A stretch of 32,000 nt of DNA from Candidatus Saccharimonadota bacterium (lineage in GTDB: Bacteria; Patescibacteriota; Saccharimonadia; Saccharimonadales; UBA4665), in the NCBI GenBank assembly GCA_016699935.1, contig CP064992.1, positions 1,140,001 to 1,172,000 on the forward strand, given 5' to 3'. Under the pieces are notes generated by a model that saw only the letters and a list, made by a program, of their open reading frames with translations, was not told where the DNA came from and did no database searches. Below are positions 2,091 to 27,837 of this stretch, piece by piece (position 1 is the first letter of the stretch; each line of letters opens with the position of its first letter). The position numbers and the translations under genes were made by a program.

Positions 2091-3369
2091 TTAAGCGGCG
2101 TAGCTGACAAGAACGGCGATGGTTTTTCGGTGAGCATGCGGCTTAAGATGTCTCGTTGGTTCTCGGGCTTTTCGAGTTCAGATAGCATCTGCTGGTCGGT
2201 GTATTGCTTTTGAGCTCAGCCAAACGAGTATCAAACTCTTCCTGCGAAATACGCAAACTTTCTTTATCTGCTACTTCACCCAGTGCGATACCAGTTTTTA
2301 CCCGCAAAGTAGCTTGTTCACGGTGACCTTCACGGTGCTCTTCTTCGGTTTTACCCTCACCCGCTAGGTGTTCCTGCCACGTTTGGCCGCGGTACATAAG
2401 GTTACGTTTTTCTTCCTCGTCCATCCGGTCGATCTCTTGCTCTACAAGCACATCAGGAATCGCCACTTGAACCTTTTGGCCCAGCTGCTCAAGCAAACTA
2501 CTCTCAAGCTGCCGCTGCGCTTGCCGATCTTTCTCGAGTCCAATCTGTTTACGAACATCCTGCCGAAGCTCTGCTGGCGTTTTGAATGGTCCGATTTTGG
2601 CAACAAAGTCGCCGTCTAGCTTCGGCAGCTTTCGCTCCTTCACCGCCTTAACTGTCACCGTGAATTCAACTTTCTTGTTTTGCAACGGAACGGTACCGTA
2701 ATCTTTCGGGAATGTGACGGTAAATGTCTTGCTATCTCCCTCGCTGAGTCCGATGAGCTCAGGCTCAAACCCTGGTATGAATGTATTGCTGCCGATCACC
2801 AAAGGAAAGTCCTCTCCCTTAGCGCCGTCGATCGCCTCTTTTGATTTCGCATCGATACCGGCAAAGTCTATTGTTACCTCATCGCCATTGGCCGCTGCTC
2901 GCTTGACGTCAGTCTTCACCGCGTCACGCGCTAGCAAATCATCAATCACCGCTTCTACGTCCGTATCAGTCACTGTTGCAACTGGTTTTGCAACCTTAAA
3001 CTTCTTATAGTCGGGAAGTTTGACTTCGCCGACCACTGCAACCATGGCGGTCATCTCCAGTGTGGTGAATGGCACAAATTTGGTGAGACTCACCTCTGGC
3101 TGGGCAACTGGGCGGAGTTTTTCCTGTTCTAGCCCGGCGGAGTAGAGGTCGTTAACGACATAGTCGATAACCTTGTTCTGCAAAAGCTGCTGGTCAACGA
3201 CTTTTTCGACCATGGCGGCTGGTGCGTGACCTTTGCGGAATCCGGCAAGCTTGAGTTCTTTGGCCAGCTCAGTCAGGACGGCTTGCTTGGCAGGATCTAG
3301 CTCATCGCTCCCAGCAGTAATTGTTAGTTGTACAGTAGTAGGGTTGAGTTGTTTCTTGGTTATATGCAT
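2091..3369 (-). CDS. tig: trigger factor; two frame breaks near the 3-prime end
   Basis: N-terminus MHITKKQLNPTTVQLTI...LAGFRKGHAP carries the trigger-factor GFRxGxxP signature, followed by a PPIase-like middle and a C-terminal arm. The frame is lost at the T4 run 2208-2211 and at the T5 run 2123-2127. Restoring one base at each gives ...ELKKQYTDQQMLSELEKPENQRDILSRMLTEKTIAVLVSYAA-stop, with the stop at 2091-2093. Confidence 0.9.
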
Positions 3370-3410
3370 AGTTACCTACTTTAACAGATACAGCCTAACA
3401 ATACCAGCCG

Positions 3411-3872
3411 CTAAATCTTGGTGGCCAAAATAGTGAGTACCCCGAAAAACCAGGCAACTTCCACGGCAGCACCCCAAACGCTCTCGTGCTGGATGGCTTG
3501 ATGAAACCGGCGAAAAGCGTTCCATTTGACCTCATTTTTTGTGAGTTTATTGTAGTACAAAAATCTCGGTAAAGAGTACAAATCTGGTGATGCAGCTACA
3601 AAAGCGCAGACAGCAGCCAAAAACCAGGCGTGTGGTTTTGCCAAAAATAGCAATAGCACAATCGCAAAACAACATAGTGCTTCGACAGCTAGCATTACTC
3701 GAAGCCTTTTATCGGGTAGCCATTCGGCATCTGTTTTTCTACCTTTAAATCCAAAGTGCGGGATGGCATCGAGTACAAAATGCGAAACAAACGCCGTCGG
3801 CAGCGCAAGCCATGGGTTGCCAAGGCTGAGGCCGATACATGCACCAGTTAGCGCATGATTGGTTGCGGTCAT
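3411..3872 (-). CDS. small polytopic membrane protein, YdjM/DUF457-like metal-dependent hydrolase family (tentative)
   Basis: 153 aa with several hydrophobic segments. N-terminal [14 protein letters not shown] and HFVLDAIPH resemble the His-containing motifs of DUF457 proteins. Its start overlaps the hisS stop by 4 nt (3869-3872). Confidence 0.55.
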   Translation of the reverse strand: MTATNHALTGACIGLSLGNPWLALPTAFVSHFVLDAIPHFGFKGRKTDAEWLPDKRLRVMLAVEALCCFAIVLLLFLAKPHAWFLAAVCAFVAASPDLYSLPRFLYYNKLTKNEVKWNAFRRFHQAIQHESVWGAAVEVAWFFGVLTILATKI

Positions 3873-5231
3873 TGGTCAAAGTTGTCAACTGAGTCGTCTT
3901 GCTGAAGCTTGCTTGGAATGGCATGCTTCCTGCGACGATCGCAGAGCATTGCGACTATTCGTTCACTGCCGTGCGTTTCCTCAACACCAGTCTCAAGATT
4001 CTTGAGCTTATATCGGTCGTCCGATATTTCTGCGTCACCTATGAAGATAGCGTGGTCAATTCCCTTTTTTACCGCCGTTTTAATTTGTTTTTCTAGTTTA
4101 CGACCAGTCGTGTCAACCGCTATCCGTAAGCCATCTTCGCGAAAGCGTGCCAATACTCCCTGAGCTTTTTCGTACATATCGTCGCCCAGCAGTATGACGT
4201 AGGCATCGGTCTCGGGCGCAAGCTGCGGATAAGCTCATGACCATCTAGGAAATTCTGGAGCGTAACGTCGCCCATACCAAACCCAACCGTCGGAACAGGT
4301 TCGACGCCAAACAAGCCGACCAAACCATCGTAGCGACCGCCACCAAACATACTGCGGTTGTTTTCTGGATGTTCATCGAACACCTCAAACACAATGTCGG
4401 TGTAGTAGTCGAACCCCGCATGAGCGTAATATCAAACTTTACGTTCGTCACTTTCGATTCCGCGAGCAAGTCACTCAACTGTTTTAGCTCAAGCACTGAC
4501 GGCAACACTTCAAAGCCTGCTGGTAAATCATTCAGCATTTTTGTTTTCATCAGCTCTGTTAATTTCTTGAGTACACCGTTTTCTCGTTGGGTCGGCGTGA
4601 GGACAGCATCGGCTTGAGCGTAGAAACTTTCTTCTTCCATTTTGTGCATGCGGTCTATGAGCCGAACAAACATCTCCTGCTGCGTATCGCTGAGCTCGAG
4701 ATAGTCACGAAACAGATAGTTCATGAGCTTGCGGCTATTGACCTTAATTGTGTACATGTGGGTTTTCGCACCATAGCTGCGCATTATTCGGTCAGCCACC
4801 AGGATAATCTCGTGTTCTGCCTCTATACCTTCAACCCCAAATATATCGACATTGAGCTGCCAAAATTCTCGTAGCCGCCCGCGCTGCATCCGCTCGTACC
4901 GCCAAACGTTCGGTATGGAATACCACCTGGCTGGATAGGCAAGCTCTTGGCGACGGCCAGCCACCATCCGGCTAACCGTCGGCGTCATCTCGGTGCGTAT
5001 GGTAACACTCCGACCGCCTCTATCCTGAAATGTGTAGGTTTGCTCGTCGATGATTTCTTGGTTTCCTTTGGCTAAAAACAAGTCCGTCGGCTCGAGTATT
5101 GGTGCGTCGTATTCTTCGTAGCCAAAGCTTTCACAAACTTCACGCATTTTGCCGAACATGTATTTTTGCAGGCGCTTGTCTTCTGGGTAAAAATCCCGCG
5201 CCCCTTTGTAAGGTTGTACTGGTAGTGTCAT
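3869..5231 (-). CDS. hisS: histidine--tRNA ligase; two frame breaks
   Basis: Three ORF fragments (4245..5231, 4120..4392, 3869..4177) join into one class II HisRS: [55 protein letters not shown], then [23 protein letters not shown], then the anticodon-binding domain. Breaks lie near 4412 and near 4227. Fragment frames step 2, 0, 1, as expected for two 1-nt deletions. Confidence 0.9.
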
Positions 5232-9623: not shown

Positions 9624-11180
9624 CTACTTCATGCGGTCGGGGTTATTAACGGCTGTTGTCCACTTTTGCACCTGTTTGTATTTTGGTAAAGTACTGTTGA
9701 GCTTGGCTATCTGACTCTTGAAGTCAGTACTACAGCCCTTGTCAACATAAAGCGTAGCTGTGATGACGTTATTATGATCGAATACCTTCGCTCTTGTGAC
9801 GCCTGGGATGGCAACGAGCAGTGTTTCTAGTTCATCGGGTGATACATTTTCGCCGTTGGAGGCGACGATCAGTAGTTTTTTGCGACCGATTACAAATAGA
9901 TTGTTTTTATCATCCTTATAGCCTATATCACCAGTATGGAAGTAACCTTCGGCGTCAAACGCCCGAGCATTAGCCACAGGATTATTGTAGTACCCTTTAC
10001 TGACGTTACCACCCTTCACCAGAATCTCACCGTGGCCGTCCTTGTCTACATCTGCAAATTTAACAGATATGTTTTCAAAGATGGTACCAACCGAATCAAT
10101 GACCTTGCTGTGTGGATACTCGACTGCGATCAAGGATGTTGTTTCAGACATTCCGTAACCCTCGATCACCGTCATGCCAACATCTTTGAAGAACCGTTTT
10201 ATCTTTGGGTCAAAGCGAGCGCCTCCACAATACATATAGCGGATATCTCCACCAAATACGTCGTGGAGTTTACGGAATAGATGCCTACGAATGTCTATTC
10301 CTATCGCGCCTAGCGCGTTGGCGAGCTTCATGCCTCTCTCAATTTTGGCCATAGTTGGCGCATCAATGGCTGAGTAAAAACGCTCATATACCAGTGGTAC
10401 CCCACAGAATATCGTTGGTCTAATGAGCTTCATCTCATCGACTATCTTGGCTGTATCAGAGCAAATATACAACTGACACCCCATATAAAATGAGTACATA
10501 AAGATGCTTACGCCAGCATACACATGGTGTAGCGGCAAAAACAGATAGTAGATGTCGTGCTCATTTGTTGGCGTACGTTGATATAGGTAGTCTCCGCATG
10601 CCAGCATGTTGTCGAGGGATAGTGTGACGGCTTTTGGGATAGAGGTTGAACCAGACGTAAAAACTATTTTGCAGATATCAGCACTCTGCTTAATGGAGTT
10701 GTCGAGATAGGAAGCATCCTGATCGAGTATCTTTCGTCCCTGCTGTAGCAAAGTATCAAAATCATTCTCTATGCACAGGTATGTGATATCAGGATAATCG
10801 GTTCGGAGCTTTTCCAGCATGCCCGACCTGTTGGACGAATAAATAATAACTTTGGCCTCAGCCGATTGTTGCGCAGCAAGTAAGTCATATGTCAGCCAAT
10901 CTTTGTTTGCGCCGATACTAATTCCGACGTATGCCATAACTGCCATGTCAGCTACCATCCACTCGTAGGAGTTATCGGCAAACAACATAACATTATCACC
11001 TTTGTGATTGTCTTTGATCAGGCTGGCTGCAAGCGCTCGAGCGTCATCGATAAAATCCCAAAAAGATTTACTGGCAAACTCATCGCCATTTTTCGACCAG
11101 ATATACGGTCTATCTCTCCACTTGGCATAATGAGTGTGCAATAATTCATCAATAGTCTGTGGTTTTGGCAGCTTAACCAT
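9624..11180 (-). CDS. AMP-dependent acyl-CoA/acyl-AMP ligase (long-chain fatty-acid ligase-like)
   Basis: Adenylate-forming core motifs are present: IVFTSGSTSIPKAV, EGYGMSETT, YFHTGDIGYKDDKNNLFVIGRKK. Start is taken at ATG 11180 (MVKLPKPQTIDELL), with an AGGAG SD, 1 nt after the upstream stop. The frame is intact. Confidence 0.85.
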   Translation of the reverse strand: MVKLPKPQTIDELLHTHYAKWRDRPYIWSKNGDEFASKSFWDFIDDARALAASLIKDNHKGDNVMLFADNSYEWMVADMAVMAYVGISIGANKDWLTYDLLAAQQSAEAKVIIYSSNRSGMLEKLRTDYPDITYLCIENDFDTLLQQGRKILDQDASYLDNSIKQSADICKIVFTSGSTSIPKAVTLSLDNMLACGDYLYQRTPTNEHDIYYLFLPLHHVYAGVSIFMYSFYMGCQLYICSDTAKIVDEMKLIRPTIFCGVPLVYERFYSAIDAPTMAKIERGMKLANALGAIGIDIRRHLFRKLHDVFGGDIRYMYCGGARFDPKIKRFFKDVGMTVIEGYGMSETTSLIAVEYPHSKVIDSVGTIFENISVKFADVDKDGHGEILVKGGNVSKGYYNNPVANARAFDAEGYFHTGDIGYKDDKNNLFVIGRKKLLIVASNGENVSPDELETLLVAIPGVTRAKVFDHNNVITATLYVDKGCSTDFKSQIAKLNSTLPKYKQVQKWTTAVNNPDRMK

Positions 11181-11181
11181 G

Positions 11182-12255
11182 TTACTGTATCTCCTTTTCA
11201 AGTAGTACGTAGTGGTATTGGTCGGCAATGTTGGTTTTCCCATATTCCTCTGTCACCTTGCCCTCAATAATCAATGCGCCAACGCATGACGCTAGTTTCA
11301 TAAACACCCGGGTAACGGCGGCGCGAGTAATGGCCCGGCCTAATCCGTGCCCCTGGTGTGCTTTGCGTACACCCAAGTACAGCATGATGTACCGTTTGCT
11401 TCGTATTTTCTTAAGCAGAATCCTCAGCTTGGTGAGCGGTGTAATCTTGCCATATAACAGATTGCCATAATCGGGTAACCCGACAAAAAACCCGACTGGT
11501 TGGCCGCCGTGGTATGCAATCTTAACCAGCGAATAGTCTAAGATGTAGCGATAGCTGTCAAAGTGTTTTCGGAAGTCTTCTTTGCTGACGTGCTTGAAGA
11601 TTGGGAAGTCGCTATAAAGCTCCATGAGCATGTCATAAATATAACCGAGTGTGACGTCGAACTCTTCTGGCTTGGGGCTAACAATCTTATAGCCTTCGCG
11701 TTTCGAGCTTGCATAGTCGCGGTTGAAATTAGCGGCTTCTTTGAGATTAATGCGATTCTTATAGATATTTGATACATACTTTTGTGAAACCCTATACCCA
11801 CTATCCAGGAAAAGATTTAGATAATATGATTTATTATACGGTTCGCCAATGTAGGGAGCGGCATCAAAATGGTCGGTCTTGAGACGGTATCTTATCCAAA
11901 AACTAGCATCAACCGGACCGGTAATCATACGCTTGTCCTGCATGGCAGCGTACGAATGGATTACTGCAAAGAGTGCTCTTGAGCAACTGACGTCATCTAT
12001 ACTCTCAAAGAAACCGATATAGGCAGCCGGGTCACCATCGTAGATTGTCAATGCAGCACGCGCGACAGGTGTTCCGTCCTGATACACCACAAAGCCTGTT
12101 AACTGAAAGTAGTCACTCAGTGGATGCTGTGCCAATAATAGCTGACGCTCTTCCTTTTCGTTCTGGATGCAGTCCCTTTTGCCATAGAGTTTTTTCGGAA
12201 CCGACAAGAAGTCTTCTGTATGCTGGCTCGTGCCACATTCAGTTACCGTGTACAT
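11182..12255 (-). CDS. two-domain GNAT-like acyltransferase family protein
   Basis: 357 aa. The C-terminal half carries the acetyl/acyl-CoA-binding motif A-like LGVRKAHQGHGLGRAI. The overall layout resembles the roughly 370-aa uncharacterised GNAT family proteins of Firmicutes and other bacteria (from memory). The ATG overlaps the upstream TAA by 1 nt. The frame is intact. Confidence 0.6.
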   Translation of the reverse strand: MYTVTECGTSQHTEDFLSVPKKLYGKRDCIQNEKEERQLLLAQHPLSDYFQLTGFVVYQDGTPVARAALTIYDGDPAAYIGFFESIDDVSCSRALFAVIHSYAAMQDKRMITGPVDASFWIRYRLKTDHFDAAPYIGEPYNKSYYLNLFLDSGYRVSQKYVSNIYKNRINLKEAANFNRDYASSKREGYKIVSPKPEEFDVTLGYIYDMLMELYSDFPIFKHVSKEDFRKHFDSYRYILDYSLVKIAYHGGQPVGFFVGLPDYGNLLYGKITPLTKLRILLKKIRSKRYIMLYLGVRKAHQGHGLGRAITRAAVTRVFMKLASCVGALIIEGKVTEEYGKTNIADQYHYVLLEKEIQ

Positions 12256-14798
12256 TATATAACCTCCACCGTTCCCTTTGTTCCGTCAATCCGCACACGA
12301 TCACCTGTCTTGAGCTTCTGTGTTGCTCCACGTACGCCAACCACTGACGGCACGCCAAGCTCGCGAGAAATGATTGCTGTGTGTGATAGGAGCGAACCTT
12401 TTTCGGCGATAACACCTTTTACAGTAGTCAGCAAAAATACCCAACCTGGATCCGTGGTGCGAGTAACCACTATCTTGCCTGTAGTATTAACCGCATCTTT
12501 TGGACTATATACAACAACTACCTCGGCCTCTGCTCTACCTGCGGAAGATCCTATGCCCGATAAGTTTGAGGAAAGCTGGTCATAATGAGCCGTAACGTGC
12601 TGCGGCTGCTTGTCGAATACGTCCTGCGCAAAGACAAGTCTCGAGTATGCCGGTAGGCCGGAGTATGCTGCATAGTCATTTTTTCGCTGCTGTATTGTAG
12701 CCAGAAAGTTTACTTTCGAGTCACGAACGCATTGCTCCAATTCATCGAAGTACAAATAGAAAACGTCACTGGCTGAGCCTAGTTGCCCTGCTTGTTGAAG
12801 CGTATCGGCAATCGACAGTACCACTGTTCGAACCATGCCGTAAATACGGCTACGATCTAGGCGAGAAGTTTCGCGGTTCCGTACGCCGACAATCATATGC
12901 TGACGGTAGAAACGAAGTAGTACCTGGTTTGGCCACGAATACTTGTCGATGCGTTTCTGAAAATCGGTCTCAGCTGGTTGTCGTTCCAGCGCGGCGATTA
13001 TCTCCGCTAGCGCCAGAGGATCACTCGCGTATGTAATGATCTGCTGCATCAGGAGGTGGGGCGAGCTACGAAACGTTTTGCTTTCAAGTTTGAGCTCCTC
13101 AAGTGAACGATCACCGTAAGTTTGCGTGTAGCTCCAAAATTTATCGGCAAATTCTGAATGGTGTTCTTCCAGAAGTGCACGTACGGCCTTGTCATCGGCT
13201 AAGCACATGAGATCATCGAGTATATTATGCTCTACAACATACTCTGCCAAAGTAGCGAGCTCCCGAACGGGCTGCATGCTTTCGATATCAGCGATACCAG
13301 AAAGCGATTTCTTTGTGGTTGTAGATGCGCCAAGCCGCTCAAGCTTGCGCTTCAGCAGGCTTGTAAAGACAAACGCGTACACATCATTGGATAGTGTAAG
13401 ATCCCAATTCTTTAGGATACTATTCGTTACCGAGTGGTAGAGCGTCATTTTTTGTTTAGGTGTAAGATCAGACCGGTAATGATCCCAAAAGTGGGACTCT
13501 GCCCGAAGAAAATCTGCATGAAGTACTCGCATTTTACGAGGAAGTGTCATGGTAAGCAATATCGACCGGAGTACTATCGCTAGGTCGCGTAGCGGATTCC
13601 AACGTTTTCTGTAAACGTCTGCTATGATGTGCTGCCGGTGGCTAACTCCCATCATTTCTTGCCATATAGGTATAATCCGACCGCTCAGGGGCAAAAACTG
13701 CATTAGCGTATACCAGTTACTAATTCTGTAGTAGACTCGTCCGTTTACGCTAGTAACCATGTGCTGCAATAGCGGCTCGTACTGTGTAATCAATTTCTTG
13801 CTGCCCGTCCCTCGCTGCAACAGTCCCCGAAATACATGGTAGTACGCTTGTTGTATGAAACTGACCGTCAACGGCAAGGTTATGCCTGGATAGCTTTCTA
13901 CAATATTGCTGTTGTCCAGTATTGTCGGCTCAGTATCATCGATAGTGGTAATTTTGCGCACCTGGAGAACGTAGACCCGTTCACTCTTAATCGCAAATTC
14001 GATGTCTATATAGGTACCGAAATGTTCTACCAGTTGTCCGCAAAGTGCAATCAGCTCTGTGACGTGTGTTTCCCCAAGGAGAGGCGCACCCGGTTGTCGT
14101 TCATGATAGTAGGCAGCATCAGTTACGTTGTAATAGTATGATGTTGTCGCAACCTTATCTCCAACAATGTGATCACCAGTTCCCTTGCCCACGGTTATGA
14201 CTGTCTCATTCAGCAACCCTTGTGGATTTGCGCTAAACATAACGCCCGATACGTCTGCCTCAATCATCTCCTGAATGATAACGCACATACTCAGTTCAGT
14301 TGGTGGCACCGATGTGTTGCAGCAGTACTTCAAGACGCTCGGAGCGTAGAGCGATTGCCAGCAATCCACAATCCGCTTGATAACCTTTTCGCGCGGGACA
14401 CGCAGAAATGTCTCGAATTGCCCTGCAAATGAAGCTGCCGCTGAGTCTTCAACCGACGCTGACGACCGAACTGAGAAGACGGTTCCATGAGCAAACTGAT
14501 CATCCAAAGCTTGCTCGATTGCTCGCCGTGCCTGATCATCAATTTCTATTTTGGCGATACTAGCGCTTAACTGCTTGCTCGCACCAATAATGTTAGTTTC
14601 ATTGTTGCCCGTAATGGCTCGTAATGCGGCCGTAACTTCTGTATCGTACTTCGATAAACATGCAGCTAGCAGATCTGGAGATACACATATAAAGTGCGGA
14701 ACAGCATACCCTTTTTTTTGTAGTGCAAATAAGTTGGTAGCTTTGGTGCCGATATTTACATTGCCCGAAGCGTTACCGTTAATGATGAGCGGTGACAT
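12255..14798 (-). CDS. PEP-utilising dikinase-type protein, fused (ATP-grasp PPDK_N + central helical domain + swivel His domain); rifampicin-phosphotransferase/PpsA-like architecture
   Basis: 847 aa. N-terminus: GTKATNLFALQKKGYAVPHF, FSVRSSASVEDSAAASFAGQFETFLRV, VIIQEMIEADVSGVMFSANP, DIEFAIKSERVYVLQVRKIT. C-terminus: TDPGWVFLLTTVKGVIAEKGSLLSHTAIISRELGVPSVVGV (phospho-His motif). The frame is intact. Confidence 0.85.
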   Translation of the reverse strand: MSPLIINGNASGNVNIGTKATNLFALQKKGYAVPHFICVSPDLLAACLSKYDTEVTAALRAITGNNETNIIGASKQLSASIAKIEIDDQARRAIEQALDDQFAHGTVFSVRSSASVEDSAAASFAGQFETFLRVPREKVIKRIVDCWQSLYAPSVLKYCCNTSVPPTELSMCVIIQEMIEADVSGVMFSANPQGLLNETVITVGKGTGDHIVGDKVATTSYYYNVTDAAYYHERQPGAPLLGETHVTELIALCGQLVEHFGTYIDIEFAIKSERVYVLQVRKITTIDDTEPTILDNSNIVESYPGITLPLTVSFIQQAYYHVFRGLLQRGTGSKKLITQYEPLLQHMVTSVNGRVYYRISNWYTLMQFLPLSGRIIPIWQEMMGVSHRQHIIADVYRKRWNPLRDLAIVLRSILLTMTLPRKMRVLHADFLRAESHFWDHYRSDLTPKQKMTLYHSVTNSILKNWDLTLSNDVYAFVFTSLLKRKLERLGASTTTKKSLSGIADIESMQPVRELATLAEYVVEHNILDDLMCLADDKAVRALLEEHHSEFADKFWSYTQTYGDRSLEELKLESKTFRSSPHLLMQQIITYASDPLALAEIIAALERQPAETDFQKRIDKYSWPNQVLLRFYRQHMIVGVRNRETSRLDRSRIYGMVRTVVLSIADTLQQAGQLGSASDVFYLYFDELEQCVRDSKVNFLATIQQRKNDYAAYSGLPAYSRLVFAQDVFDKQPQHVTAHYDQLSSNLSGIGSSAGRAEAEVVVVYSPKDAVNTTGKIVVTRTTDPGWVFLLTTVKGVIAEKGSLLSHTAIISRELGVPSVVGVRGATQKLKTGDRVRIDGTKGTVEVI

Positions 14799-14801
14799 CG
14801 T

Positions 14802-15703
14802 TTACTGTCCCTGTCCACGTACTATGAGGAGTATCTCTGTAGCGATTAGTACTGCCTGCACCAGATATATATAGATACGCGCAACCTTGCCATATGAGAA
14901 ACGCACTGGGTTACTCATGTACACCAAGCTAGCCCACACAACTCCCACATAGACCAGCGCGAGTAGCCCAACTGCAACCGTAGAGAGTGGATAGACAACA
15001 ATCCCCAACGACACAAGCTGAGCGAGTAACACCACAAGCACTGTTATTACTGCCGGTTTATTGCCAAGTATTTTGGAGTACGTTGTGTACTGATTCTCAT
15101 CTTGAGGTGCTTTGATTTTGCGGCTAATTTCCCAGGCTAACGCTGGGAAATATAGTGAGCTGGCAATCAGTATGGTTGTCCAAGTAAAGACGGGCAGATG
15201 ATATGCAATACACGTAAACGAAATAATATAGAACACTAGTATGAACTGCACAGGGTTATGTGTCGCAAGTGCCAATAGTAGATTTGGCTGTATATACCGT
15301 TTGGCAAAAACCATACCGACATGAGCGCCGCATATGCCAGCAGCACAGCAAAATAGATAGTGTTATTCATGAACACCAAGTTCAGCACAACAATTATAGA
15401 AAGACTGGTTGCGAAGAGAGTAATAAGATCACGCTTTTTGACTCTGCCAGACGGCAGCGGACGATGTGGGAAGTTTATCTTATCAGTTTCGGCATCCTTA
15501 AATTCATCGGCAATTCTTAGCGATAGCAAAAATACAAACACGGTCAGGCTACCGATAATCTTGCGTAATCCAACAGTAATGGTGCCGACATGGCTAGTAA
15601 GCAGCACCAGATAATACACAACAAAGAAGAGCCCACCGCTGACAATGAGCCGGGAAACCGGCGGATACATTTCATGCAGATAAACACTAAGTCGTTTGAA
15701 CAT
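14802..15703 (-). CDS. UbiA-superfamily prenyltransferase; one frame break
   Basis: ORFs 15236..15748 and 14802..15314 join at the A5 run 15306-15310 (...AALMSVWFFAKRYIQPNLLLALATHNPVQF...). First Asp-rich motif: RIADEFKDAETDKINFPHRPLPSGRV, compared with NDxxDxxxD...RPxPSG of DGGGP synthase/UbiA enzymes. About eight TM segments. Start is ATG 15703, with a GGAGGA SD. Confidence 0.8.
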
Positions 15704-16643
15704 GCACAGCTCCTCCAATTGTTTCGCCCATATGTACTTTTGTTTCAACTCCCTTACGAGACTGCACTAGTATATCCTCATCAATATATATTGCGCCTTT
15801 TTGGAAGAACAAAATAATCGTTGATCCGCCAAGGCCAAAGTAACCTTTCTCCTCACCTTTCTGAAAAACGTTGAGTGCATGGTTATTGATTTTGCCTACA
15901 AGCAAGGCACCTACCTCCATCGCTACTACATCACCGAAATGGTCTGTGCGCGTCAGTGTGTACTCACGGTAGTTTTCAGTAAAAACCTTGTGATGCTTAG
16001 CGCTGATTGGCTGTACGGTGTGCAGTCGCCCATTGATTGTCCGGTGAGAAATAATATGCCCGTCATCGATAAAACAATAGCGGTGGCAATCCCCCATTGC
16101 GAGCCGGAATACCAAACAAGTACCCCCATGATATTGCTGAGCCAGTGCACTATCACACAGTATCTCAACGAGCGTATAGTCACGGTGTTTCACGCGTATT
16201 GTGTTGTTATCATGAAGAATATATGTCATCACTTGCGCATCAGCTGGTGATATTAACGTATTCACGCCAATCGCAATCGGGCGTTTGTGCGGGTCAAGTT
16301 TTCTTTCAAAGAAATCATTGAATGATCTGTACGGCGTGCTTACGTAATCTGCCTGGTCAATGCCGTACTGGTCAATAAAGGGTTGGATCTTGCGCCGTGA
16401 GCGGGGCTAGCATTAAACCAAGCATTCAGTTGTGAATACCAGCACCGAGAAAAAATAAGCCATAACAGCAACCTGCCGGGAACGGTTTCATACAAAAACT
16501 TGAGCTGTTTCTCGCCGTATTGATCTACGCTACAGGCGGCCTGTTTTGTCGGTCATAGACGGTAACGCTCATCGGGTTCCCAGTAACAGCACTACGGGTG
16601 TCAGCACTATAGCCAACAGTACGAGTACTATATAACCAAACAT
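15687..16643 (-). CDS. psd: phosphatidylserine decarboxylase proenzyme; three frame breaks in the 5-prime third
   Basis: ORF 15687..16265 contains the self-cleavage region FGLGGSTIILFF (LGST type). The same frame continues upstream as SRRKIQPFIDQYGIDQADYVSTPYRSFNDFFERKLDPHKRPI. Further upstream pieces read MFGYIVLVLLAIVLTPVVLLLGTR / SVTVYDRQNRPPVA / VDQYGEKQLKFLYETVPGRLLLWLIFSR. Breaks lie near 16570, 16530 and 16408. Start is ATG 16643. Confidence 0.8.
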
Positions 16644-17189
16644 CGTTGGTTTTTAAAGCGTATATTTGCAATAAACAGCAGCGCCAAACAGGCAACCAGT
16701 CCTGCGCTTACGACACCCGCACGTGCAGGACTCATCTGAACGGTCGCAATATACACCAACGGGAAAATAAGCGCCGCAGCGGTAACCGGGAAGCCAGTAT
16801 ATGCTTGGCGTGGCCGCGACCGGTCGCTATATTGAACAGACCAAGTCGCGTAATACCGGCTAATACAAGTGCAATATAGGCGGCTACATCATACCAAGCT
16901 GTGTAGCCAAGTGCCGCGAAGAGTATAACCGGCAGCAGGCAGAACGAAATAATATCAGCCAGTGAGTCTACCTGAACACCGAAAGCTTTTCATCCTCGGT
17001 TCGCTTGCAATGGCGCGCAACCGTACCATCAAATATGTCGCAAATCCCGGCAATCATCAGACAAACGAAACCGTAACTTACCTTGCCCCTCAGTGCAAAG
17101 ATCATTCCCGCTACCGCTGTAGCCACACCAAGATACGTCACAAGAAGCGAACGGTTGTATATGCCGATGAACGGTTGCTTTGTGCGTCA
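16628..17189 (-). CDS. pssA: CDP-alcohol phosphatidyltransferase, phosphatidylserine-synthase-like; three frame breaks
   Basis: Reconstructed minus-strand translation gives ...QPFIGIYNRSLLVTYLGVATAVAGMIFAL...LMIAGICDIFDGTVARHCKRTEDEKLFGVQVDSLADIISF, i.e. the D-x2-D-G-x2-A-R...G-x3-D-x3-D motif. Breaks lie near 17175, 16983 and 16798. The ATG at 17189 overlaps the upstream stop (ATGA). The raw track shows only spurious + ORFs here. Confidence 0.75.
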
Positions 17190-17585
17190 TGCTTTCGTCT
17201 CCACAATAGTTATGTGTCCGGTCGCTCCATCAATCTCAATAGTACTGCCATCTTGGATGGTGGTGGTTGCGTTTGGGACGCACACAACGCAAGGGATACC
17301 GTACTCTCGTGATACAATCGCTGCATGGCACAGAATGCCACCATATTCAGTCACTACCCCTTTGATAATCGCGAACTTGCTTGTCCAGCCGGTGTCAGTA
17401 AATTTTGTTACCAAAATATCATTCGGTTGCAATCGTCCAATATCCTCTAGCCCGTCGATAACACGTGCCGTACCAGAGATGATCCCCGTATTGCAGCCGA
17501 CGCCGTTCAGATCACCTACCTTGAGTTTTGATTTTTGTGGATGACTAGTTTTGAAAACGGAACCAATGGCATTTTGGGTTGTCAT
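17187..17585 (-). CDS. stand-alone PEP-utilising enzyme mobile (swivel phospho-histidine) domain protein
   Basis: 132 aa: GVGCNTGIISGTARVI...ILVTKFTDTGWTSKFAIIKGVVTEYGGILCHAAIVSREYGIPCVVCV, the canonical PEP-utilizers motif with the His. It is paralogous to the C-terminus of the 847-aa protein. Confidence 0.85.
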   Translation of the reverse strand: MTTQNAIGSVFKTSHPQKSKLKVGDLNGVGCNTGIISGTARVIDGLEDIGRLQPNDILVTKFTDTGWTSKFAIIKGVVTEYGGILCHAAIVSREYGIPCVVCVPNATTTIQDGSTIEIDGATGHITIVETKA

Positions 17586-17624
17586 AATTCTTAAACGAGT
17601 TATAGTACAACCGGTTTTTCTGGA

Positions 17625-19704
17625 TTATAGGTGTAAGTCGGCTGTAGTCTTTTGCTTGTCGACAAAATCGCAGATGTCATCAATCTTCAGGTAGAAGATG
17701 TCGTTGACTTCATGAAGCACACCAGCATCTACGTACATTTGGGCAAGTTTAAGCGTATACATGCGAATGATGTAATACATTCTGGTAGAAGTGTCGCGTA
17801 ATTCTTCACGCCACCAGAGAAGTGAGCGTATATCCTCGATGCTCCTCACGAGGGTTTTGTATTTTCTGGATGATACTTTGGCCTGTAGCGCAATGAGTTC
17901 TTTTTGGTATGACTGCTTTTGCTTGGCCTCTGGGTCGGTATCAATCACTGATGGGCCAAGCACAATGGCGTCCTTAACCATCTGGATAATCCGCTCGGTA
18001 TCTTCAAAGTAACACTGATGTGTTATGTCAAGCTCTTTATCCGAGTGATAGCCGTATGTCTCAACGTACACGCGGACATCATTCAGGAAGTGTTGCGTAC
18101 CGCCCTGGTCATAGCATGTTTTGATAGCTTTGGCCGATGTGTTGCGCCAATAATCGCTGCTCGCAGTGTTAGCGGTAATCTTGCGGCCCAGGGCCCACAT
18201 ATCCCGCGCTGGTAAAACATGTGAAATATTATCAAGCCCGCCAAGCAGGGTGAGGTATTCAGCATAACTGACGTGTTTTAGCAATTTATCCTTAAACAGC
18301 GTTTGGCGAATGGTATTGATAAAAATCTGCCAAAAGTACGTGCCCTCGGTCTGCAAGTAATCTTTACGAATAAGTGTCCGCCAAAGTCCTTGCAACTCAT
18401 CCAGGGTATATTGCTTGGACCACCTGTCACGATAGTCTCGATAGCTCTGTAGTACTGCTGCTCTGTGGGCCTCGACTGTCGCCTTCTGCTGCTTGTAAAT
18501 GCGAAGCTGGGGGCCAACCATGAGGAGCACATTCCTAAGCGAGCGAAGGATAAGCCTGTTACCTTGCCTTTGCCCTTGTAAGTACTGGTAATACCCAGCT
18601 CGTCATCGAACTCCTTTCAATATATCCTGGTACTTTAGCCATTGCCTCTTTACGACACTTGCATTCCAATACGGCCGGCCGTAAAACATATTGCCTAGCT
18701 TGCGCATCTCTGATGATTTCATGATTTTCGACTGAGTCAAAACTTGTAGAGCATTGTTTCCCAGATGAACTCATACAGGCTCCACATATACGGCGTGCAT
18801 ACAGTTGCCGATACGCCGCCGTCCTTGAAGTCAGCCATCGTCCACTGGTCGAGTATTTCACCATACAGAATCCTGGTGATAGCCCGCGCCTGCAAGATAA
18901 AAAGCTCGTCATTACGCACTGCAAATTCGATGTCGACAGGATAGCCAAAAAGGCTTGCAGCTTCAGCGCAGTATCCACGATGGTCTGTTGCATAGCAGGA
19001 GGAATGACTGGACTATCTGGGCGCTCTACGTATACACCATCGTACCAGTTGTAGACGTAGCGCTCCGCTGCAACCTTGCCAGTTACCAGGTTCTCGCCGA
19101 GGCCTTTGGTAGCCTCAACGATTATCTCTTTGTCTACACCTGTAACGGGATTTACGGTGAAGATGACGCCGCTGGCGTTGGCGGGCACCATTTCCTGCAC
19201 AATGACAGCCATCTGAAGATTCTGCACGTCTAGATTATTATCTATCATGTACGAGAGTACCGTTTCATCAAACATGGACTGATAGCAGGCAATGATCTTC
19301 TGGCATATGTCATCAATGCCATGTACGTTCAGAAACGTCTTATACTGCCCGGCAAATGATAATTCAGGTAGATCTTCCTTGAGCCCGCTACTTCTAACTG
19401 CATACAAGACGCCTTGTTTGAGATGTTTCTCGATGTCATGCCGTAGGCTATCCATGATTGTGCATGTGCCAATAAGCGATGTTAGGCGATCACTGACATC
19501 ACAAACCGTTCCTTTGGTTATCTGCGCACAGAGTTTCGCTACTTTTTTGGATGTATCGTTGTCAGCAATAATGCTCTGCATGGTTCTGCTATCAAGAATA
19601 AAGCCGTCCGGGACATTGAACCCCTCATGCTTCATTCGTGACAAGAAAAGCGCTTTATTGCCAATTGTGCGCTCTCCTCCCTGACCACCGATTGTTGTAA
19701 GCAT
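17625..19704 (-). CDS. PEP-utilising dikinase-type protein lacking the swivel domain (ATP-grasp PPDK_N + central helical domain); five clustered frame breaks
   Basis: ORF 18559..19704 contains GNKALFLSRMKHEGFNVPDGF, YAVRSSGLKEDLPELSFAGQYKTFLNV and VIVQEMVPANASGVIFTVNP. It continues through fragments FFGYPVDIEFAVRNDELFILQARAITR... / LTQSKIMKSSEMRKLGNMFYGRPYWNASVV / KEAMAKVPGYIE / FDDELGITSTYKGKGKVTGL into ORF 17625..18530, the central domain, which is similar to the middle of the 847-aa paralogue. Breaks lie at about 18949, 18740, 18650, 18616 and 18537. Confidence 0.75.
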
Positions 19705-19706
19705 GT

Positions 19707-20299
19707 TTATACGTTCTTCTTAAGCTTCACTGCATACAATAATACATTAGTAACGATGTGCGTTGTACCCCCAATCGTCACATATGCCAGGTAGAACCAG
19801 ATCGTCATCGGATAGAAAAAGCTTACCACTAGCACGCAGCCAAAAAGTGAATCGACTTGGTCGAGCACTAGAAATGGAATACCCCTAATGCCTCTTGGTG
19901 TCTTGCCTGATCTAATCCCTAGTCTCCGCTTCATGTAGCTATTCGGCAATTCAAACAATACGTATGCGAAACCGACGATACAGCCTACTAACAGATTGAA
20001 CACGACAGTATTGGCGTGGGTGTGGTATAGAAAGTTATGGGCAGATACTGAGGGAATGAGGCTGCAAATAAAGCCCCAGATGACGGTAATTAGCCCCGTT
20101 AGGACTACCATCCCCAGAACCCTTTCCATGTTTTATTGTCACCAAATAAACGCCGATTGTCTGAAAGCAGTCGCTTGCCATCCATAGAATGTTTCATACC
20201 ATTCAAGAATGTCGATTTGACAAAGACCATATTCAACACACCAGCCAGAATAACTGGCAATAGCGTCACATACATTCCCAGGACGAGGGTTAACTGCAT
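19707..20299 (-). CDS. CarS-like (CDP-archaeol synthase / DUF46 family) CTP-dependent membrane transferase; one frame break
   Basis: ORFs 20105..20299 and 19707..20129 join at the C4 run 20112-20115. The motifs MDGKRLLSDNRRLFGDNKTWKGFWG and PNSYMKRRLGIRSGKTPRGIRGIPFLVLDQVDSLFG match my memory of the CarS family consensus (P.D.G...DG.R..G..KTW.G and SF.KRR.G...G...P..DQ.D). About five TM segments. It is the first gene of the operon, with an AGGAAGG SD and a TATAAT at 20323-20318. Confidence 0.7.
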
Positions 20300-20790: not shown

Positions 20791-20798
20791 TGTTGATT

Positions 20799-20817
20799 TG
20801 GTGCGCGAGAGAGGACT
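20799..20817 (-). repeat. 19-nt exact copy of the tRNA-Leu 3-prime end (T-loop end + acceptor + CCA)
   Basis: tggtgcgcgagagaggact is identical to 20996-21014, the 3-prime end of the intact tRNA-Leu 197 bp upstream on the same strand. The upstream part does not fold as a tRNA. Confidence 0.85.
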
Positions 20818-20995: not shown

Positions 20996-21079
20996 TGGTG
21001 CGCGAGAGAGGACTTGAACCTCCATGCCTTTCGGCACCAGCTCCTAAAACTGGCGTGTCTACCATTCCACCACTCGCGC
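20996..21079 (-). tRNA. tRNA-Leu (anticodon UAG), type II with long variable arm, CCA encoded
   Basis: Minus strand reads GCGCGAG-TG-GTGGAATGGTAGACAC-G-CCAGT-TTTAGGA-GCTGG-TGCCGAAAGGCAT-GGAGG-TTCAAGT-CCTCT-CTCGCGC-A-CCA. Folded by hand: 7-bp acceptor stem, anticodon loop TT-TAG-GA, variable stem-loop, and a T arm with TTCAAGT. Confidence 0.9.
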
Positions 21080-23634: not shown

Positions 23635-25675
23635 TTAATTTAAGTTTGTAACCCGGCGCAGTTTATCAACTCGCATGGAAAGCTCGTTGTATTGTAACAA
23701 ATTTTCACCACTCTCTATGAACGCCTGAGCCGCTTTTCGCGCTTCAGCAATCAACGTGGTATCTGACAGCTTCACAACACGCAGGTCAAGAGCGCCGTGT
23801 TGCATGGCGCCGTAGATTGCCCCGGGACCCCGGAGCTCCAGGTCTAGTTCGGCCAAGCGGAAGCCATCATTACTCGATTCTATAGCGCGAAGACGCTTTG
23901 ATGGCGCATTCGTGTCGCTAAGCAGGAGGAAGCAGTGAGACTGCTGGCTACCGCGACCGACTCGCCCACGAAGCTGATGAAGCTGCGCTAAGCCAAACCT
24001 TTCTGCCGATTCAATGACCATAATCGTTGCGTTTGGCACATCTACCCCGACCTCAATAACGGTAGTAGCAACGAGCACTTCCAATTCGTGGCGAATGAAT
24101 GCTTGCATGACGGCTTCTTTTTCGCTCGGCTTCATCTTGCCGTGAAGCAATCCAACCCGACAACCCTTCAGCTGTTTTTTCTGAAGTTCTGCAAAGACAG
24201 TTTCGACGGCAGCTCCCTTTGACTCTTGAATCATGTCTCTTGACTCTATCAACGGGCAGACCACAAAGGCTTGTCGCCCAGCCGCGATTTCACCGCGGAG
24301 GCTTTCGTACAATCTGTCACGGTTCACCGGGGAGACCAGCGTGGTTTCTATTGGCAATCGCCCAGCTGGCTTTTCTTTCAGTATAGAAATGTCGAGCTCG
24401 CCGTACAGCGTCAGCGCCAGGCTACGTGGAATTGGTGTGGCCGTGAGCGAGAGGACGTGTGGCATATGACCTGCTTTAGCCATAAGCGCCTTGCGCTGTT
24501 CCACGCCAAATCGATGTTGCTCATCGACGATGATAAGCCCTAACCGCTGCATGTCGACTTTCTCTTGAAACAGGGCATGCGTACTGACCATAATCTGGGC
24601 GCCGCCCTGTGCAATTTCCGCGTGTGCCTGTGCCTTCAATTTTGGCGTCATACTGCCCACCAGAAGGTGCGGGCGTAACCCAAAGGTCTTCAGCATGGGA
24701 TACAGCGTTGCAGCATGCTGCATCGCCAGCAACTCGGTTGGTGCCATAAACGCCACCTGGAAGCCCTCCTTGGCCGCCATGAGTGCCGCCATCGCCGCAA
24801 CGACCGTTTTACCCGAACCGACATCACCTTCTACGAGCCGATTCATTGGGTAATGATGTTCCATATCCTGATATGCCTGCCAAAACGGCACGGCGTTGGT
24901 CGTCGGTTAGCGTAAAGGGCAGCTTGGACACAAACCGTTTAGCTAGCTCAGCGTTGAAAGGTATGGACAGTGCATTTTCTCGCATACTTTCTTGTTTGTT
25001 CAGCAAACTCGCGAGACTGAGCTCAAACACTTCTTCAAACCCCAATCGCCGCCGAGCTAACGCTAGCTGTTCGGAAGTTTGCGGAAAGTGCATTGCTTCG
25101 ATGGCTTCCGCCCGAGAGAGTAAAGTCGCCTCAGTTACTATCCACCCGGGAAGTGTTTCGGGCAGTGTCCGAAGTGTCGGGACGCAGGCAGCAATCAGCT
25201 TCCGGAGCTGATTCGTCGAGACAAGCTTTGACTGCCGATAGACTGGCACAATCCGTGCCGTGTTGACCGGGAAGTCTTTCACCTGTTCAGCGCTGGGGTT
25301 CATGATCTGAAAGCGTTGATGACTCAGTTCGTACAATCCGCTCACATAGTACTCGTGTCCAGGCTTCAGAGCGGCCGCTCGGTAGGGCTGGTTAAACCAC
25401 ACAGCCCGCACGCTGCCAGTTTCATCTGAAAACACCGCCTCGGTGATGTGCATGCCCCGGCGCACATAGCGCCCAGTGGCTTGCTTCACGGTTGCTTTTA
25501 CGGTCACGGCTCCTGGTCGCAAATCTTTAACCATCAATACTTCCGAATAATCCTCATAGCGCATCGGCAAGTAATCCACTAAATCAAAAACCGTGTTGAT
25601 ACCAAGGCTCTTGATGCCTTTTGCTATGGCTGGCCCGACACCATTTACGGTCTCAACACTGTCTGATAGTTTCAC
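23635..25675 (-). CDS. recG: ATP-dependent DNA helicase RecG; one frame break
   Basis: ORF 24824..25675 is the wedge/OB N-terminus with a GTG start. ORF 23635..24891 is the helicase core: GDVGSGKT (Walker A), DEQHRFG, SLTATPIPRSL, VIESAERFGLAQLHQLRGRVGRG. The two join near 24885-24895 (LPFTLTDDQRRA / WQAYQDMEHHYPMNRLVEGDVGSGKT). Confidence 0.9.
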
Positions 25676-25690
25676 TCTTCTATGGTACCA

Positions 25691-26563
25691 CTAGCGTGGG
25701 CGAGTGAGAGCAGTTTTGTGGGCGGCAAGCTCGGTGTGATCGTCAAGCGCGGGGAGTTCGACGTCATCATAGCGGCGAGAAAGGGCGAGATGAAGGAGCT
25801 CATCGGCAAAGACGGGGTTTTTGACGAGGACGGGACCGTGGCTGTAGGTACCAAAGACGTTGCGCACGCGGCAACCTTCGGTTTTGTCTCGGCCGTTATT
25901 GCCATCTCCTTTGGTGACCCTACCAAGAGCGAGGCTACCATCGTCCAAGGTACTAATACCGCTATGGTTTTCGTAGCCGACTACTTCACCGAAAGGCGTG
26001 TCGTACGTGGTGTTACCTATCATGCGCACGTCGCCGCCAACCGTTTCAAGCGGCAGTATACCGATGCCTTTGATTTCCTGACCCTCATGCGTCACAAAGC
26101 GGCGCCCAAACAACTGGTACATGCCGCATATCATAAGCATGACGACATCGTCTTCGGCCATCTTTGTCAGCTGGGCTGCCTTGGCCTGCAGATCATCCTG
26201 GATTTTGCCCTGCCCTGCATCTTGCCCACCCCCGCCGATAATGATGTCGGTTTCATCTGGGATGGTATCTCCAACACCGACCAGTTTTACTTGGACTTCA
26301 ATACCGCGCCACTCCGCCCGCCTCTGGAGTACGAGCCGGTTCCCCGTGTCGCCGTAAATGTTCATTTCCTTGGGGTACAGATGCACAATAGTCAGGGATT
26401 TAGTGGCTGGACGCTGGAAGTTGGACGTTAGGGGTGTGTCATCCTGAGCGAAGCGTAGCGAAGTCGAAGGATCTCTTTGTTTCCTAGAAGATTCTTCACT
26501 TTCGTTCAGAATGACACTCTGTAAACTTTGCTCTTTGCTCTTTGCCCTTTGCCCTTTTTTCAT
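25691..26563 (-). CDS. gatD: lipid II isoglutaminyl synthase glutaminase subunit GatD (CobQ-type amidotransferase), with a repeat-encoded N-terminal extension
   Basis: The core LTIVHLYPKEMNIYGDTGNRLVLQRRAEWRGIEV...ICGMYQLFG...GYENHSG...GTYSHGP aligns by eye with S. aureus GatD, including the catalytic Cys in ICG and His in HGP. The only in-frame start upstream of the conserved first strand is ATG 26563, which overlaps the murT stop (ATGA). This adds about 55 aa encoded by repeats. Confidence 0.85.
   Translation of the reverse strand: MKKGQRAKSKEQSLQSVILNESEESSRKQRDPSTSLRFAQDDTPLTSNFQRPATKSLTIVHLYPKEMNIYGDTGNRLVLQRRAEWRGIEVQVKLVGVGDTIPDETDIIIGGGGQDAGQGKIQDDLQAKAAQLTKMAEDDVVMLMICGMYQLFGRRFVTHEGQEIKGIGILPLETVGGDVRMIGNTTYDTPFGEVVGYENHSGISTLDDGSLALGRVTKGDGNNGRDKTEGCRVRNVFGTYSHGPVLVKNPVFADELLHLALSRRYDDVELPALDDHTELAAHKTALTRPR
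26436..26517. repeat. 82-bp imperfect palindromic repeat element inside the gatD 5-prime region
   Basis: The left arm is gtgtcatcctgagcgaagcgtagcgaagtcgaaggatc. The reverse complement of the right arm is gtgtcattctgaacgaaagtgaagaatc. On the gatD strand it translates as ...SVILNESEESSRKQRDPSTSLRFAQDDT.... Confidence 0.8.
26526..26560. repeat. 7-bp tandem repeat (CTTTGCY), four copies plus a degenerate fifth, at the gatD start
   Basis: Read directly: ctttgct ctttgct ctttgcc ctttgcc ctttttt. On the coding strand it gives MKKGQRAKSKEQS. Confidence 0.85.
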
Positions 26564-27837
26564 GCTTCGTCTCCCAGGCCCGAGTAAATGCCCAAGTACA
26601 CACTACGAATCTTCAACATTGCAGTGTAGGTACAGAATAAAATAGCTTCACCGCCGTCGGTCGCTGCGCGTTCGTTGAGGGCGGTCACGTATTCACCGAG
26701 ATCCTCGTACGCTGCAACTGTTTTCACTCCGTCATATTTAAGCCGATTTGCCATGTCTGCCGCGCGGACGCCACCACACAACACTGGACGCTGCAAGGAC
26801 TCAAACGATACATCCCATAACCAGGATACATCACGGCCATCTGGGTAATCATCGTTAATGGCAATCCCAATCGTTGTATACGACTTCAGATCGAGCATAC
26901 GGAGCGCCTGCGTAAACCCCCCAGGGTTTTTGACGAGCTGAAGGGTGAGCTTACCGCCGCCAGGTACATCAATAACTTCACCGCGACCGAAAGCCGGCTC
27001 AACGGTGAGAATCGCCTCGGCTAGCTTAGTTGTATCAGGCGCAGGCACCACCTGGTACAGCACTGTGAGCGCCGCCGTGAGGTTAAGAGCGTTATGTCCC
27101 CCCTGCAGCTGGTAGCGGTAGCGGTGAGGCGTACCGTGGATACTTACAGATACCGACGCCTCATCATAACCAGTGAGCAGCACGTCTGGCTCGCCGCCAA
27201 GGGCATAGGTGACCGTTTCAGCGTGGTAGAGCTGGTCATCAGTTAGAAACTCTGCCTGCAAATCTGCGCTATGGGCATACCACACTGTTTTCACATCGTC
27301 ACCCACCAAAATTGTACTAACGCGCTCGTCGTTAGCGCTCAGGACAACATATTCTGTAGCTGAACGCGCAAGGGTTTCTAGGAGTTTCAGGGTCGTATCG
27401 ATTTCGCCAAACCGATCCATTTGATCACGCATGATATTGAGCACCAGCACGCCACGCGGGCGGACAACCTTAGCAAAATGCACCGCATGAGCTTCGTCTT
27501 GCTCAAAGACCGCAATATCGTATGCTAGCTTCCCATTCCAGCCTGCTTTATCTACCACTGCGCTGATGATACCCCGCACGAAGTTGCTGCCTGTTGGATT
27601 GGTCAGCACGCGGAGCCCTGCGCCTCAAGCAGCTTGCTAATGATTTTGGTGGTCGTTGTTTTGCCATTGGTGCCAGAGACGACAATGACCCCTGCGGCAG
27701 CTGCGCCAGCATATCAGGCAAAAAAGGTGCGGGCTAACCTTTTCAACAATCCGACCAGGCAACGCCGAACCCGTCCGGCCAAATGCCCGCAAGCCTTTGA
27801 GTGTCACTTTTCCAACCGAGAGACCAAGAAAATGCAT
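26560..27837 (-). CDS. murT: lipid II isoglutaminyl synthase ligase subunit MurT (Mur ligase family); three frame breaks in the 5-prime part
   Basis: ORF 26560..27609 aligns by eye with S. aureus MurT (FRDQMDRFGEID, GGHNALNLTAA, VKNPGGF, NDDYPDGRDVSWLWD, GGVRAADMANRL). The N-terminus is reconstructed as MHFLGLSVGKVTLKGLRAFGRTGSALPGRIVEKV... / DMLAQLPQG / VIVVSGTNGKTTTTKIISKLLEAQG / LRVLTNPTGSNF. Breaks lie near 27735, 27705 and 27615. TATAAT sits 8 nt upstream of the ATG at 27837. Confidence 0.85.

Follow-up and report, generated by a model that had tools for sequence, protein, structure and literature searches.

A bacterial CarS-family gene in a conserved operon with an interchangeable kinase slot

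Results

The carS-like gene on the minus strand at 19707..20299 of the window (the 32,000-nucleotide stretch of a Candidatus Saccharimonadota genome analysed here) belongs to a conserved eight-gene operon made up of a kinase, carS, pssA, psd, a UbiA-like gene, a further dikinase gene (dikinase 2), a GNAT gene and an acyl-CoA ligase gene. The kinase slot of this operon is filled by three unrelated enzymes: an RPH-like dikinase, DgkA or a phytol-kinase-like protein. In the window the order is carS, dikinase 1, pssA, psd, ubiA-like, dikinase 2, GNAT and acyl-CoA ligase, with neighbouring genes touching or overlapping at their junctions. A bacterial CarS homologue would be unsurprising on its own, NCBI already so naming bacterial proteins and half of the relatives searched carrying one; the locus is of value for the conservation of its operon and for the exchange of kinases in one slot, both overlooked by the original prediction.

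All eight genes lie on the minus strand. Dikinase 1 (17187..19704), which has the RPH/PigC architecture of PPDK_N, substrate and His swivel domains, carries two frameshifts and occupies the putative lipid-kinase slot; it is followed by a frameshifted pssA-like CDP-alcohol phosphatidyltransferase gene (16569..17190, start approximate) and by the phosphatidylserine decarboxylase gene psd (15687..16572), which has the GGST self-cleavage motif and one frameshift. Three core genes come next: a UbiA-like membrane transferase gene of the NCBIfam PRK13592 type (14802..15703; one frameshift, Asp-rich motif kept), dikinase 2 (12255..14798), an intact RPH-like protein of 847 aa with the conserved swivel-domain His whose gene nearly always adjoins the UbiA-like gene, and an intact 357-aa tandem GNAT acyltransferase (11182..12255) distantly related to bacterial ceramide synthase/YghO-type proteins. 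An intact gene for an AMP-binding acyl-CoA (or acyl-ACP) ligase (9624..11180), a frequent but optional member, ends the operon. The original prediction had placed carS directly upstream of pssA and psd and two genes away from ubiA, but the 2.5-kb RPH-like dikinase gene (19704-17187) intervenes and the UbiA-like gene is four genes downstream. A promoter scan returned matches at chance level.

The carS-like gene runs from an ATG at 20299 to a stop at 19707 and, read through, encodes a predicted five-helix membrane CTP transferase of 197 aa; a one-nucleotide deletion in a G4 run (20112..20115, minus strand) splits it, leaving the first 62 codons, which end in GDNKTWKGFW, in one frame and the remainder in another. 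Both signature motifs on which the original prediction drew are present, but they are divided between the two frames, DGKR..FGDNKTWKGFW in one and SYMKRRLGI..LDQVDS in the other. A metagenome contig with 90% DNA identity to the window (L020) has G5 at this position and encodes an intact 197-aa protein (P0001), the two copies differing synonymously in 47 codons and non-synonymously in 14. Frameshifts affect five of the eight operon genes in this assembly, and essential genes are fragmented genome-wide (RpoC, EF-G, DnaE, SecA and DnaK). Given the intact 90%-identical contig, the predominance of synonymous changes and the broken essential genes, an error of sequencing or assembly is the most likely cause of the break; carS is a real gene. 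Frequent housekeeping frameshifts make gene calls from this assembly unreliable. Within the window, frameshifts are also seen in hisS and recG (2143-5231 and 23635-27609).

Operon partners are found at 81 of 82 CarS-anchored loci, and conserved operons of this kind occur in Clostridia, Streptococcus and some Saccharimonadales; cultured carriers include Streptococcus cristatus, S. moroccensis, Pseudobacteroides cellulosolvens and Clostridium lacusfryxellense. The single orphan operon-type CarS gene lies in Anaeromicropila (L082 9977-10573), beside a transporter-like gene and a sigma factor gene and with no lipid genes nearby. At the 72 loci that could be scored for the kinase, dikinase 1 alone, after carS, occurs in 39 and dgkA alone, before carS, in 33, with none having both and none neither. 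We considered and rejected treating this split as 72 independent observations: the dgkA operons form a single clade on the CarS tree, so the split represents few events. Judging from these trees (a quick tree and a FastTree tree, both without archaeal sequences and with moderate support), the kinase swaps would number about three.

DgkA–CarS fusions, found before pssA/psd-like genes, form a clade separate from the dgkA operons, and a phytol/dolichol-kinase-like domain is fused to CarS in P0061 and P0063, fusions of this kind again preceding pssA–psd. The nearest sister, P0009 from a Candidatus Saccharimonadales bacterium, has a phytol-kinase-like gene beside carS and no dikinase 1 before pssA, and in three rearranged loci (L130, L134 and L167) carS and a dikinase gene have relocated together. 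That three unrelated alcohol kinases occupy one slot is the strongest argument for dikinase 1 being a lipid kinase. CarS–PlsC fusions also exist, and one of them (L208 982-8205) is convergent with UbiA, ferritin-like, dikinase, CDP-alcohol transferase, GNAT and phytol-kinase-like genes.

The UbiA–dikinase 2–GNAT core, with or without the ligase, also stands without carS, the kinase, pssA and psd, at about ten UbiA-anchored loci. It is accompanied by a soluble cytidylyltransferase and a CDP-alcohol transferase in four genomes of the window's order (L113-L116, from G126, G163, G255 and G132), loci that often add a PlsC-like acyltransferase, a second UbiA, methyltransferases and a conserved 216-aa membrane protein. 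In Brevibacillus and Roseinatronobacter the core is found with DUF3419, which we take to be BtaA-like, and a phytol-kinase-like gene, without CarS; this variant (L118 10512-21900 and L119 523-8507) encodes a 439-aa phytol-kinase-like protein, a GNAT and an AMP-binding enzyme, and the Brevibacillus laterosporus locus further contains genes for an HMG-CoA reductase homologue and for a P450. By established chemistry, the head-group kits paired with the core modify the free hydroxyl of a neutral lipid.

Profile and fold comparisons converge on the CarS family. Both halves of the window's carS match PF01864 in a profile search (17.2 bits, E 0.005, and 35.3 bits, E 1.5e-8), and P0001 scores 54.4 bits against a gathering cut-off of 22 with no PF01148 match; PF01864 is matched by all six homologues, four of which also match PF01148 weakly; cross-matches to PF01148 cover only the C-terminal part of that profile. 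The sole PDB sequence match of the CarS-like protein is 5GUF, Aeropyrum pernix CarS (E 1.6e-9). An AlphaFold model of P0001 (pLDDT 83.7) again retrieves 5GUF in Foldseek, at E 2e-4 the only match below 0.001, and superposes on it with Z 14.0 and rmsd 2.5 over 151 aligned residues, whereas the next-best match has Z 7.3 and the CdsA structure 4Q2E has Z 6.6. The protein lacks the hallmarks of CdsA (about 260 aa, nine helices and the CDS signature), having 197 aa, five long helices and no such signature. Nor is it similar in sequence to the phytol/dolichol-kinase-like domain, the CarS profile finding no match on three phytol-kinase-like proteins and their profile matching no operon CarS gene.

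Invariant positions in the carS product are D40, K56-T57, E117, S121, K124-R125-R126, D147-Q148-x-D150 and H181; K56, T57, S121, K124, R125, D147 and D150, covering the acidic dyad and the basic CTP loop, are kept in all 84 operon-type sequences. The metal and CTP roles of these motif residues are presumed from alignment to 5GUF and from reviews. The first acidic residue is Glu (E117) in 84 of 84 operon-type sequences and Asp100 in 5GUF, a replacement by which activity or metal use may differ from that of Aeropyrum CarS. The archaeal equivalog NF003114 is not reached (71.1 bits against a cut-off of 148). Because the 5GUF-like fold and motifs are kept, the Glu is invariant and the NF003114 score falls below its cut-off, the carS product represents, as judged from sequence and modelled fold, a bacterial subfamily of its own within the CarS family. 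The PF01864 match, the 5GUF fold and the retained motifs thus uphold the CarS-family membership originally proposed, and family, fold and motifs support its predicted role as a CDP-alcohol synthase.

The genome that contains the window is a single contig of 1.23 Mb, estimated to be 91% complete, and its bearer is probably a host-dependent bacterium. The Saccharimonadales origin of the sister protein P0009, taken with the gene content, suggests that the window comes from that group as well. Searches of this 91%-complete, frameshift-rich assembly found no CdsA, PlsC, PlsY or ketoacyl synthase/fatty acid synthase, and no GGGP synthase/PcrB (PF01884), polyprenyl/prenyl-diphosphate synthase (PF00348) or UppS; as frameshifts lower search sensitivity, these lipid genes are to be read as not found rather than as proven absent. 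No CDP-alcohol transferase and no CarS match of the genome was found outside the operon, and this small genome yielded no other phospholipid pathway. One apparent match to Spt was set aside, as it reads as Kbl beside threonine dehydrogenase-like genes. Among 30 operon carriers, none exceeded the NF047600 cut-off for Spt, 25 had no match at E 1e-40, and PF01884 (GGGP synthase) gave short partial matches only.

A full CdsA gene is present elsewhere in the genome of 29 of 30 Bacillota carriers, and this coexistence suggests that the CarS substrate is one handled poorly by CdsA. In the window's own order, 60 relatives searched yielded a full CdsA in one and CarS-like genes in 30. To describe the gene as standing where cdsA would be expected, as was done originally, is therefore misleading on both counts. 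The CarS-like genes of these 30 relatives are of a different, stand-alone subfamily (L002-L004, L007, L214-L216), usually in a kit with CDP-alcohol transferase-like and PHP-type genes, and this three-gene kit could replace cdsA–pgsA–pgp.

Homologues of dikinase 2 reach E 1e-30 in only four of 300 other genomes of the order, at 27-30% identity, and the closest operons are mostly in Bacillota (42-57% identity); this rarity in its own order and the Bacillota affinity of its relatives suggest that the operon was acquired horizontally. Slight further support comes from a 21-bp exact copy of a tRNA-Leu 3' end (20797..20817, minus strand), an att-like scar about 200 bp downstream of the tRNA-Leu(tag) gene itself (20996..21079, minus strand), which lies upstream of the operon; the copy is also present in L020. 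There is no partner copy downstream of the operon, and no integrase was seen nearby. We do not call the region a genomic island, given the single tRNA-end copy, the lack of a nearby integrase and a GC content of 46% versus 48%.

The core proteins offer further clues to chemistry. A fold search with the operon GNAT returned the tandem GNAT fold only; no solved structure matched it in sequence, and for the UbiA-like protein none did so better than E 0.13. The operon GNAT is homologous over its full length to GNATs of clusters with Spt and CerR, comparison proteins assigned by context rather than by experiment: over 315 columns (hhalign 98.4%, E 5e-15, about 21% identity) it aligns with a GNAT of Roseomonas, in whose cluster Spt-like and CerR-like genes stand together with those for a lipid kinase and an acyl-AMP ligase. 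This kinship points to N-acylation of a lipid amine, and the Asp-rich motif kept in the UbiA-like protein points to a diphosphate donor. On a Streptomyces linear plasmid (L120 6760-11286), Spt-like, GNAT, CerR-like and condensation-domain genes stand in a row as a candidate sphingolipid cluster.

Discussion

The carS product is most likely a Mg-dependent, membrane-embedded CTP:lipid-phosphate cytidylyltransferase, a role to which the observed family, fold, motifs and linkage point and whose substrates we infer. We consider it probable that the phosphate which this enzyme cytidylylates is that of a non-standard lipid, produced by the core of its own operon, after which PssA and Psd would provide an ethanolamine head. 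The acyl-CoA ligase and GNAT would introduce a fatty acyl group, probably in amide linkage, and dikinase 2 and the UbiA-like enzyme would use a diphosphate-activated donor to add a second chain, probably through an ether or prenyl link; ether, amide and ester backbones are all candidates. The slot kinase, dikinase 1 here and DgkA or a phytol-kinase-like enzyme elsewhere, would supply the phosphomonoester, CarS would form the CDP-lipid, and PssA would then install a serine head, which Psd would turn into ethanolamine. The order that we favour, with a confidence a little short of even, has the slot kinase act on the finished neutral lipid, just before CarS. In this genome, given that no synthesis genes were found, the chains would be scavenged from the host or the environment. 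A more ambitious reading, which we advance tentatively, is that the operon makes a phosphoethanolamine lipid resembling ceramide, with an amide and an ether or prenyl link, by a new route that requires neither glycerol-phosphate acyltransferases nor CdsA or Spt, and in which RPH-like dikinases would be both a new class of lipid kinase and the makers of the UbiA donor, and the bacterial CarS subfamily would activate the product. We found no biochemistry for any operon member and no description of this operon or pathway in the literature, our search being thin in subscription papers.

CarS would have the same job whichever step the kinase takes, and a somewhat doubtful variant of this proposal puts the kinase first, to phosphorylate a scavenged prenol such as phytol or farnesol: dikinase 2 would then add a second phosphate, UbiA would transfer the chain to a phosphorylated backbone, the GNAT would acylate it and CarS would act directly. 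Such salvage would suit DgkA of Bacillota and the phytol/dolichol kinases, which act on prenols, and UbiA, whose chemistry prefers allylic diphosphates; it also fits the failure to match a prenyl-diphosphate synthase in this genome, by which the UbiA donor must be either salvaged or made by the operon. We keep an early-acting kinase as an option mainly because the CarS-free DUF3419 variant carries a phytol-kinase-like gene, once together with the HMG-CoA reductase homologue. Yet where carS is fused, relocated or lost the kinase goes with it, while UbiA and dikinase 2 persist without them, unless a housekeeping kinase elsewhere serves those loci. DgkA is also the classical diacylglycerol kinase, and the kinase, CarS, PssA and Psd might simply turn diacylglycerol, whether it comes from recycling, scavenging or the core itself, into phosphatidylethanolamine, with CarS as a small CdsA isoenzyme. 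The CarS–PlsC fusions would suit such ordinary ester lipids, as would the DgkA–CarS fusions ahead of pssA/psd-like genes and the different CarS subfamily that in relatives adjoins a CDP-alcohol transferase and a PHP-type gene. We nevertheless regard this as unlikely: carriers already own CdsA, the linkage to UbiA, dikinase 2 and GNAT is nearly absolute, and characterised archaeal CarS, which prefers DGGGP to phosphatidic acid and does not complement an E. coli cdsA mutant, discriminates against the substrate required (PMC9385802, PMC4244643).

Two further readings have little in their favour. That the CarS-like protein is itself a CTP-dependent kinase of prenols (an option originally raised) or of prenyl phosphates, supplying the UbiA donor, might be suggested by its membership of the superfamily that includes CTP-dependent lipid kinases and by its coupling in the operon to an alcohol kinase and UbiA. 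We judge it very improbable, as the protein keeps CarS/CdsA-type cytidylyltransferase motifs and the 5GUF fold, its profile misses the phytol-kinase-like proteins, relatives have a distinct phytol-kinase-like domain fused to CarS or next to it, PssA requires a CDP-lipid, and some UbiA operons have no CarS. A true CDP-archaeol synthase serving an archaeal-type diether lipid in a bacterium, the lipid-divide setting in which the gene was first placed, is scarcely credible. Aeropyrum CarS is the closest solved structure, UbiA-family and serine-synthase genes are nearby and NCBI labels a sister protein 'CDP-archaeol synthase', but the NF003114 score is less than half its cut-off (71 versus 148 bits), the operon always brings acyl-transfer genes, and the archaeol reading is unlikely because neither a GGGP synthase/PcrB nor a polyprenyl or prenyl-diphosphate synthase was found here, the 30 carriers giving only the short partial GGGP synthase matches. 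Of published work on the divide, Coleman 2019 leaves CarS unmentioned, and Villanueva 2020 notes on CarS only its absence from Cloacimonetes.

Returning to a cytidylyltransferase acting on a lipid of its own operon, the present analysis contributes the observations that three kinds of kinase replace one another in the slot, that the core is separable from the head-group kits, that CarS coexists with CdsA, and that the GNAT links the operon to ceramide synthase. The genes concerned are usually annotated misleadingly, as PEP synthase or CDP-archaeol synthase, and the swaps predict testable functions: the dikinase would phosphorylate a lipid, and CarS would act on some lipid other than archaeol or phosphatidic acid. 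A bacterial PF01864 protein together with UbiA should not be taken as evidence for archaeal lipids. The operon bears on the membrane-lipid supply of Patescibacteria without fatty acid synthesis and, if the ceramide-like route is true, gut Clostridia and oral streptococci would contain an unrecognised lipid class and a Saccharimonadales bacterium would complete its own phospholipid from scavenged chains.

Among known systems, the operon CarS resembles archaeal CarS (Aeropyrum pernix 5GUF and Archaeoglobus fulgidus; PF01864, NF003114) in size, in its five-helix fold and in having the GDxKT loop and the SxxKRR and DQxD motifs, and like it stands before serine synthase and decarboxylase steps. It differs in its low identity (20-24%) and sub-cut-off equivalog score, in an invariant ELPNS where archaeal CarS has DMAGS, and in being accompanied by no GGGP synthase but always by a lipid kinase, for which the archaeal pathway has no need. 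With CdsA/YnbB (PF01148; Thermotoga 4Q2E) it has the catalytic domain and presumably the reaction in common; by contrast, it has no N-terminal or dimerisation domain, lacks the KDx5PGHGGx2DRxD signature (PMC7018664), and coexists with a full CdsA in 29 of 30 carriers. The stand-alone CarS of the same order is likewise a bacterial PF01864 protein, yet it forms a separate clade at 25-33% identity, keeps Asp in GDxxES, has other neighbours and was not found in the genome studied here. The operon dikinases share domain order and the swivel-domain His with rifampin phosphotransferase and PigC (5FBS, 5HV1-3) but fall far below the cut-offs of those families, and the replacement of dikinase 1 by DgkA or phytol-kinase-like genes suggests a lipid-alcohol substrate. 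Finally, the alignment of the operon GNAT with a GNAT from an Spt/CerR cluster recalls the bacterial sphingolipid pathway of Spt, bCerS and CerR (PMC11087976), whereas the operon has neither Spt nor CerR and contains, in their place, UbiA and a dikinase.
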